From positions 1 to 10,796 of the IMG/VR virus record IMGVR_UViG_2690316318_000025: a DNA stretch of 10,796 nt; one strand, given 5' to 3'. This stretch comes from a virus. Its lineage: Duplodnaviria; Heunggongvirae; Uroviricota; Caudoviricetes. The position numbers and the translations under genes are program-made. Numbering within the stretch: the first letter of the stretch is position 1; every line of letters starts with the position of its first letter. The notes beneath the pieces were generated by a model, which saw only the letters and a program-made list of their open reading frames with translations, had not been told where the DNA came from and ran no database searches. Shown piece by piece: positions 1 through 456 of the stretch.

Positions 1-456
1 CTATTCACCCGATGCAGCGCGCTTGCTGCTTTTCCGTAAGCACCGCTCACGACGCGCCAGAAAATTGTTTCGTTCTGGCTGGGAGTGGCTTTCACGGAAT
101 GCCGCCATCCACACGGTTGCAGCACGACGGTATAAGCCCCTGGACTCCAGTTCTTCAGCCTGGCGGGTCAGGCACAAAATCACCCGTGGATCGTTAGTGC
201 CGACATAGAAATTGCGCACAGGTCTGGTTTCTCGAACTGGTTGTGGTTCCGGTTCCTGCGCTCTCTCAGTCAGGCGCGGGAAATGTCTGCGTGTATCTCC
301 TTCACAACGGTGAGCCACACGCCCACTCTGACGTAACTTGCTTGCTGACTGCAGAACGCGCTGCCGTGAGTAACCTGCAAAAGCATCCGCAATGTCTCCG
401 GAAGTACACCCCGGATGGGCTTCAATGAATTTCTGAACTTCATTCAAAAGACTCAT
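1..456 (-). CDS. PerC-family-like transcriptional regulator with N-terminal HTH-like region (YfdN-like), ~151 aa
   Basis: ORF 1..462 (-). ATG at 456..454 is preceded by a GGGGG Shine-Dalgarno-like run; an alternative GTG at 462..460 overlaps the upstream stop as GTGA. Stop TAG at 3..1. The C-terminal motif LESRGLYRRAATVWMAAF resembles the PerC/Pch signature (GLWRRAA) as I recall it. Last gene of the leftward operon. Confidence 0.55.
   Translation of the reverse strand: MSLLNEVQKFIEAHPGCTSGDIADAFAGYSRQRVLQSASKLRQSGRVAHRCEGDTRRHFPRLTERAQEPEPQPVRETRPVRNFYVGTNDPRVILCLTRQAEELESRGLYRRAATVWMAAFRESHSQPERNNFLARRERCLRKSSKRAASGE

Follow-up and report, generated by a model that had tools for sequence, protein, structure and literature searches.

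A tail-less allele of yfdN, a gene for a predicted winged-helix and PerC-like protein, in the early operon of a lambdoid prophage

Introduction

The protein considered here shares a conserved core with the PerC/Pch regulators and, more distantly, with the ANR proteins. Pch activates only where H-NS, StpA and Hha silence, and H-NS occupancy at LEE1 of the enterocyte effacement locus (LEE) is lowered by Pch (PMC4764244). Binding partners of the ANR proteins are H-NS, Ler and regulators of the AraC type, AggR among them (PMC4983702, PMC10148876), and the proteins carry the signature A-x3-E-x7-A-x3-W-x2-A...R-x3-C (A10, E14, A22, W26, A29, R47, C51), which includes functionally essential residues (PMC4983702). 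Here we describe yfdN, a gene for a PerC-like protein that lies at one end of a viral DNA of 10,796 nucleotides (IMG/VR record IMGVR_UViG_2690316318_000025, positions 1 to 10,796; this whole stretch is referred to as the window). We know of no recognised DNA-binding domain in PerC or Pch proteins; YfdN has a second, N-terminal domain.

In Escherichia coli K-12 the gene has been called the 'K12 unique PerC homologue', and it was deleted from a ler-lacZ reporter strain (PMC5931665); in work on LEE regulation YfdN is routinely taken as irrelevant or redundant. It is among the commonest PerC relatives in E. coli, with Rep-yfdN DNA in about half of the complete genomes and in the Shiga toxin Stx2c and Stx2a phages.

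Identity, start and family of the window gene

The gene and the parts of its product are placed in the window as follows.

4..456, minus strand: coding sequence of a 151-amino-acid YfdN-type protein, from the open reading frame (ORF) list, with its ATG at 456
1..3, minus strand: stop codon TAG, a premature amber in place of the usual GAG, removing the last 11 residues, EWYLSGNYVGA
462..467, minus strand: Shine-Dalgarno sequence AGGGGG of yfdN, within the final codons of the replication gene
271..456, minus strand: predicted winged-helix domain, residues 1-62, from AlphaFold2 models and profile search
190..270, minus strand: variable Pro/Glu-rich linker, residues 63-89, predicted to be disordered from low model confidence and family variability
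4..189, minus strand: predicted three-helix PerC/ANR-like domain, residues 90-151, from Pfam PF06069 and the AlphaFold2 helices

Judged by its sequence, the window gene is yfdN of a lambdoid prophage of the SfV / mEp460 / CPS-53 type. The exact 151-residue protein is RefSeq WP_054412929.1, which has also been deposited from Escherichia albertii, and clusters of 164-residue proteins are 99% identical to it. PHROG 1324 ('transcriptional activator') matches residues 1-151, both domains included, at 2.8e-70. At the DNA level, window positions 1-1300 (Rep and yfdN) recur at 80-100% identity in 2726 of 5426 complete E. coli genomes by megablast, and the matches listed annotate the gene as yfdN or as a PerC family transcriptional regulator. 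Related DNA is present in Stx2c and Stx2a converting phages, mEp460, SfV (orf40) and SfII, and sb43 of ST64B is a homologue whose 2001 annotation reads 'putative transcriptional activator; similar to b2357'. This gene was catalogued before now, and RefSeq gives it the PerC-family label. Its identification adds nothing; the small additions made here are the loss of the tail, the ANR-like core and the adjacency of methyltransferase genes.

The first-pass annotation of this DNA had chosen ATG-456 as the start, and that choice stands. All 25 diverged homologues in the family alignment begin with MS[LI], and the start assigned to yfdN relatives by the Prokaryotic Genome Annotation Pipeline (PGAP), a GTG at 462, sits within the Shine-Dalgarno sequence; for both reasons ATG-456 is the better start. 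The Shine-Dalgarno sequence (467-462) is 5 nt from ATG-456, the TGA stop of the upstream Rep gene occupies 461-459, 2 nt from that ATG, and the minus strand reads TTCAGGGGGTGATCATGAGT across this region and the yfdN start. The edges of the window are exact gene ends, with the yfdN stop at position 1 and a minus-strand ORF start at 10796, so the yfdN stop belongs to the source genome and does not come from a cut gene. The product is a two-domain protein of about 17 kDa.

Only 90 matches to YfdN were found among 1.84 billion cluster representatives; some 25 of these are full-length two-domain proteins, down to 24-30% identity. The family alignment (A1) holds 26 sequences, namely the window protein and 25 homologues down to 24% identity, among which A100, L103, R111, A112, A119 and R136 are invariant and P15, A113 and C139 nearly so. 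Because full-length members persist to 24-30% identity, the two-domain architecture is old and stable and not a recent fusion. The N-terminal part had been described at first pass as an added module, which is right in that an extra domain is present, but the idea of a one-off fusion has to be given up: the architecture is conserved to 25-30% identity and is captured as PHROG 1324.

Several database proteins are chimeric (P0004, P0005, P0016, P0017, P0025, P0036 and P0062), with YfdN joined to Dam, to RusA, to HTH_36 (Rep) or to a Cro/C1-type helix-turn-helix (HTH_3/HTH_31). Their probable origin is in decaying prophages, through deletion, frameshift or a gene call that reads through, and such entries could mislead surveys of domain architecture. 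A further candidate, the 462-residue P0189 with apparent PerC repeats, was rejected as low-complexity noise.

The C-terminal PerC-like domain and its resemblance to ANR proteins

A PerC/Pch-like signature had been noticed at first pass in the C-terminal half of the protein, and profile searches confirm it. The Pfam PerC model PF06069 matches residues 98-147 (nt 16-165) with a score of 36.1 bits, above the gathering score of 22.6 (E 8.2e-9), and the signature itself, GLYRRAATVW, comprises residues 107-116, encoded at nt 138-109 of the minus strand. By BLASTP the window protein is 37% identical over 46 residues to PerC of enteropathogenic E. coli (EPEC; E 8e-7), represented by the 89-residue protein adjoining perA on pEC404/03-1, and 40% identical over 52 residues to PchE of strain Sakai (ECs1588, 90 residues; E 5e-10). 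The YfdN family profile aligns with PerC in hhalign at a probability of 97% (E 1e-10). A tblastn search with the YfdN C-domain did not reach canonical plasmid PerC, which was located by way of PchE as an intermediate. In the AlphaFold2 model the domain consists of helices at residues 90-105, 109-122 and 126-146; no match to it was present among the structure-database hits.

The same domain resembles the ANR family. NCBIfam model ANR_neg_reg (NF033650) matches it over model positions 5-51 of 54 with 23.7-24.2 bits (E ~2-3e-5), which does not reach the curated cut-off of 32 bits. PerC, PchE and the YfdN C-domain all match the ANR model over almost its full length at scores below threshold (E 2e-5 to 2e-3), the match of YfdN being the strongest. 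The residues of the ANR signature recur in YfdN at the published spacing, as A100, E104, A112, W116, A119, R135 and C139, and they lie in a predicted three-helix domain. On these sequence comparisons the PerC core of about 50 residues and the ANR proteins look like one three-helix superfamily.

The N-terminal winged helix and the linker

Two AlphaFold2 models were built from family alignments, with a mean predicted local distance difference test score (pLDDT) of 82-82.5. The pLDDT per block of ten residues is 85-95 over residues 1-60, and residues 3-60 are predicted to follow the winged-helix order H1-strand-H2-H3-beta hairpin, with helix 3-13, a short strand, helices 19-25 and 31-43, and a hairpin of strands 47-52 and 55-60. 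Profile searches point the same way. Among the sequences of the PDB the family profile matches BlaI (E 3e-4), MarR (3e-3) and a PapI-like protein (6e-3); PHROG 1687, which carries a MarR family label, matches the N-domain at 2e-5; and Pfam MarR_2 is found in distant family members, with 32.5 bits in P0179 (gathering score 27) and 25 bits in P0195. The earlier suggestion of a helix-turn-helix-like N-terminal module missing from the short PerC proteins is upheld by the modelled winged helix and the match to BlaI, PerC and PchE starting directly with the core. Both folded domains are basic, with isoelectric points of 9.8 (N-domain) and 11.1 (C-domain). The linker between them has block pLDDT values of 47-54 over residues 61-80 and 73-76 over residues 81-90, and it differs in length and sequence across the family alignment.

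PHROG 1687 has 162 positions, of which lambda Ren matches 1-65 and the YfdN N-domain 70-122; from these matches it may be a profile of two winged helices in tandem. In the family member P0179 a double winged helix stands ahead of the PerC core.

Loss of the conserved tail by an amber codon

The window copy of yfdN ends early. Position 3 of the window is A where relatives have C, which changes GAG to TAG; the window reads ctattc, locus L001 ctcttc and SfV ctcatc. The Glu codon is kept in 76 fetched loci, as GAAGAG in 74 and as GATGAG in 2, while GAATAG occurs in only 4, all of them from the exact look-up. What is lost is a conserved element: the motif W-x-L-[AS]-G-x-[YF]-x-G follows the third helix in most of the 26 aligned members, to about 25% identity, and takes the form EWYLSGNYVGA in E. 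coli, whereas the window copy lacks it owing to the TAG at nt 3-1. The tail is predicted to be disordered (pLDDT 40-50 in the AlphaFold2 models), and modelled disorder of this kind is typical of a docking peptide. It is kept in P0181, which has no methyltransferase gene downstream, and it is therefore not merely a by-product of the ribosome-binding site of the next gene.

Full-length relatives have a yfdN stop TAA that overlaps the ATG of dam (TAATG); in genomes with the amber allele dam starts 33 nt after the TAG. At least 24 contigs carry the amber allele, which stands in two different immunity and replication backgrounds (L015 and L016), and the downstream dam, rusA and Q genes are intact. 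Other tail-less variants are P0045 (148 residues) and P0015 (150 residues). The window copy may be a weakened variant, since it is without the disordered, conserved C-terminal motif; it is also a ready-made natural tail deletion.

Comparison of L015 with L016 (~3000-6456) shows the identical amber yfdN and downstream genes behind two different repressor, cro and replication modules. Two upstream modules in front of one identical allele place a mosaic recombination joint at the start of yfdN or just upstream of it.

The early operon and the replication module

The genes upstream of yfdN form a compact series on the minus strand, in the order cro-like, CII-like (2336-2899), Ash-family (1503-2339), a 78-residue ORF (1274-1510), Rep (459-1277) and yfdN. 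Successive early genes overlap by 4-8 nt, the exception being a 2-nt gap before yfdN, which directly follows and abuts the replication-initiator gene as in other members of the YfdN subfamily. Between the divergent cI/cro-like region (~3200) and yfdN we found no convincing minus-strand terminator; the single terminator-like match is within shuffle expectation. The arrangement of the sequence gives good support to the prediction that yfdN and the early genes are expressed together on induction. That yfdN is co-encoded with phage early genes, as the first-pass annotation held, is thus correct, these genes forming one packed string from the cro-like gene to yfdN. The same annotation took the replication operon to end distally with yfdN, which is wrong: after yfdN, the genomes with the exact allele, SfV and other E. 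coli prophages have dam, a LexA_DNA_bind gene, rusA, KilA-N, DUF968/HNH and Q on that strand. As yfdN lies mid-way in the rightward early operon, it is expected to be expressed only on repressor inactivation or infection.

Other features of this region are listed here.

459..1277, minus strand: replication-initiator gene with an HTH_36 / DnaD-like N-terminus (Pfam HTH_36, 1.8e-11; PHROG 270, replication initiation protein, 6.9e-88)
1791-1878, minus strand: match to C4 antisense RNA (Rfam RF01695), 82.3 bits against a gathering score of 45
1903-1979, minus strand: match to the Hfq-binding RNA isrK (Rfam RF01394), 64.2 bits against a gathering score of 50

A gene of this Rep family lies upstream of the YfdN-like gene in 126 of the 176 loci with a detected upstream ORF; in another 45, all of the E. 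coli type, the upstream product is a protein of about 328 residues to which Pfam assigns no family.

The C4 and isrK matches fall in the region of the 278-residue Ash-family ORF, in the early unit upstream of Rep and yfdN, and their sequences suggest a control element upstream of Rep similar to P1 c4/ant or to IsrK of Gifsy-1. In a near-identical E. coli prophage the stretch of the 278-residue ORF (1503-2339) is split between an ash-family protein (~1503-2048) and a DUF4222 protein (~2011-2190). Given this two-gene annotation and the Rfam RNAs within the stretch, the 278-residue ORF may be an over-call. Direct repeats are present inside the Rep gene at 858-881 and 908-1012, comprising three copies of a unit of about 39 nt (GTGAAT.T..TGCACTACC...) and a 12-nt tandem pair. 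By analogy with lambda O they look like origin iterons that lie within an initiator gene; the middle of the Rep protein, of low complexity and rich in Gly, Ser and Ala, is encoded by them as well.

The downstream methyltransferase slot

Loci of distant homologues were fetched and their ORFs called and clustered; the proteins encoded on either side were compared with Pfam, and loci that seemed to be exceptions were inspected by hand. At 80% identity the YfdN-like proteins fall into 19 clusters, 16 of them two-domain. The next gene encodes a DNA methyltransferase in about 13 of these 16, with stop and start overlapping or nearly so, and four unrelated Pfam families are represented.

Dam, PF05869: downstream of the YfdN-like gene in the E. 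coli type, L121, L013 and L007
MT-A70, PF05063: downstream of the YfdN-like gene in L133, L006 and others
D12, PF02086: downstream of the YfdN-like gene in L144 and L163
C-5, PF00145: downstream of the YfdN-like gene in L012

The trio sb42-sb43-sb44 of ST64B has the same arrangement. There are also departures from it. A LexA-like gene directly follows yfdN in 15 E. coli-type loci and in one Citrobacter locus; L011 has RecT, the YfdN-like gene and an acyltransferase gene, with no adjoining methyltransferase; and in L014, an island with integrase and AlpA-type excisionase genes, no methyltransferase gene is next to the YfdN-like gene. In Yersinia phage YeP1 an unrelated 156-residue protein is encoded between Rep and Dam, and a Klebsiella phage has the same Dam family at another place and without YfdN. 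Because these two phages break the pairing, we do not regard the methyltransferase link as firm, and because all of the positive cases belong to one syntenic module they are not independent of each other. The pattern may reflect in-place replacement within a cargo slot or it may reflect a functional link; we consider a cargo slot shared behind the replication genes to be no less likely than a partnership in function.

Possible functions of YfdN

We propose, tentatively and with somewhat less than even confidence, that YfdN is a modulator of transcription or of the nucleoid that is expressed on induction. It would be made on prophage induction or infection, and its PerC-like core would act as Pch does, relieving silencing by H-NS, StpA and Hha at particular promoters or counteracting other regulators. 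The role of the winged helix would be to target DNA or to provide a second protein contact, either of which is missing from the 90-residue PerC proteins, and the targets would more likely be phage DNA, or AT-rich silenced DNA in general, than LEE specifically. The link from prophage induction to host virulence genes that was raised at first pass is speculative. Several observations weigh against this proposal. The match to the PerC model covers positions 5-54 of 90 only, and the C-terminal half common to PerC and PchE (about model positions 55-90; DN[FY].D...Y..MG...RNY) has no counterpart in YfdN, so that the window protein has neither a full-length PerC domain nor, at 151 residues (162 in relatives), the single-domain form of about 90-105 residues that is usual in the PerC family. 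Activation of ler by PchD and PchE, homologues outside group 1, is slight at most (PMC5931665), and Fukui et al. saw no co-precipitation of PchA with H-NS (PMC4764244). Among the papers examined that mention YfdN, none was found to report an experiment on it, the mentions being screen lists and the reporter-strain deletion, and the protein is still entered as 'uncharacterized protein YfdN'. In structural comparison the winged helix matches the N-terminal domain of T4 MotA best, and RPA32C also ranks high; the winged helices of both bind protein rather than DNA, and DNA binding cannot therefore be assumed from the fold. The amber allele and the other tail-less variants could, moreover, mean decay in cryptic prophages.

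Protein contacts are central to a different and rather unlikely explanation, that YfdN is an antagonist of the ANR kind. Its three-helix domain would then serve purely in protein-protein interaction, as in Aar and Rnr, and would sequester a regulator of the H-NS family, the AraC family or the phage, with the winged helix as a second docking domain for proteins and not a reader of DNA. Of PerC, PchE and YfdN it is the C-domain of YfdN that comes nearest to the ANR model (24.2 bits, E 2.2e-5, positions 5-51 of 54); the signature residues are conserved in the YfdN family, ANR proteins do bind H-NS, Ler and AggR, and the conserved tail with its pLDDT of 40-50 is disordered in the manner of a docking peptide. 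The score is nevertheless under the NCBIfam cut-off of 32 bits, and neither the window nor the annotation of related prophages shows a partner gene of the AraC/XylS family. ANR proteins are moreover single-domain and smaller than 10 kDa, and the strongly basic character of both YfdN domains suits nucleic-acid binding. We consider it unlikely, too, that YfdN is an accessory of replication and methylation which acts with, or controls, the downstream methyltransferase or the upstream Rep, for example in the timing of methylation on new phage DNA or in control of expression like that of a C protein. The methyltransferase neighbours of about 13 of the 16 two-domain clusters, drawn from four Pfam families, the TAA/ATG overlap of full-length yfdN with dam and the ST64B trio would fit such a role, but the link is not obligatory in either direction, as the loci with a LexA-like gene next, L011, L014, YeP1 and the Klebsiella phage attest, and a cargo slot in one syntenic module with non-independent cases may explain the pattern.

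The place of yfdN directly after the replication genes is also that of lambda ren, and the winged helix could be a relative of Ren with a role in phage exclusion or anti-exclusion and not in gene regulation, though we regard this as highly improbable. The family profile and Ren align in hhalign over 58 columns that span the whole winged helix with an E-value of 1.5e-3, but at a probability of only 17%, and BLASTP of Ren against YfdN gives no alignment. Ren and the YfdN N-domain match the same PHROGs 142, 1687, 633 and 19053, those to PHROG 142 having E-values of only 0.008-0.01; Ren is without a PerC-like domain. A PADLOC scan returned no credible defence system and no convincing match to a defence family. 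That the amber disables or weakens the protein, which would then have no current function in this prophage, is improbable, and this explanation overlaps in part with the others. The change of GAG to TAG does remove a motif kept in most of the 26 aligned members, to about 25% identity, and among the database relatives many are fragmentary, carry frameshifts or are fused to neighbours; against neutral decay, both folded domains are intact, the exact allele is spread over at least 24 contigs and both the L015 and L016 backgrounds, and dam, rusA and Q downstream have remained intact.

The architecture of YfdN has some use beyond this prophage: the PerC/ANR core stands apart in it from a separate winged helix, a dissection made by nature that could help to settle how PerC-type proteins find their targets. 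It is a good deal less probable than the main proposal that the YfdN family is a distinct class of phage early proteins, in which the PerC/ANR module, the winged helix and the docking tail couple replication to an orphan methyltransferase or recruit anti-silencing to new phage DNA; were this so, the domain split would show which part of a PerC-type protein contacts protein and which contacts DNA.

Comparison with known systems

The N-domain of YfdN is only 8-20% identical in sequence to the winged-helix regulators MarR, BlaI/MecI and ArsR and to the phage modules of this fold, the T4 MotA N-terminal domain and lambda Ren, and the pair of dimerisation helices that is a feature of MarR is not found in it. 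In lambda the gene order is O-P-ren, and yfdN here occupies the slot equivalent to ren.

With the ANR proteins Aar, Rnr and Cnr the YfdN C-domain has in common a predicted three-helix domain of equal length. The ANR proteins, however, are single-domain proteins of less than 10 kDa that accompany AraC/XylS regulators and act as anti-activators, whereas YfdN has two domains and a mass of about 17 kDa.

PerC and PchA-E (PF06069) have a core of about 50 residues in common with YfdN, A-x2-LE-x-[KR]G-[LF]-Y-RRAA-x-W ... ER ... R-x3-C, at 37-40% identity. PerC and PchE are proteins of 89-90 residues that start directly with this core; YfdN adds the winged helix, the linker and a different short tail. 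The genomic settings differ as well, yfdN being part of a phage replication module, perC of the per operon, and the pchE gene lying beside a single-stranded DNA-binding protein (SSB) gene in prophage Sp7, a small prophage that is P4-like according to the literature.

The nearest relatives are YfdN of E. coli K-12 from CPS-53/KpLE1 (b2357, P76510), SfV orf40 and ST64B Sb43, which are 92-100% identical to the window protein and have an equal two-domain architecture. They differ from it in length, the window copy having 151 residues and its relatives 162 (164 from the PGAP GTG start). All three are encoded after a replication gene and before a dam-type methyltransferase gene, as is the exact window allele in other genomes that carry it.

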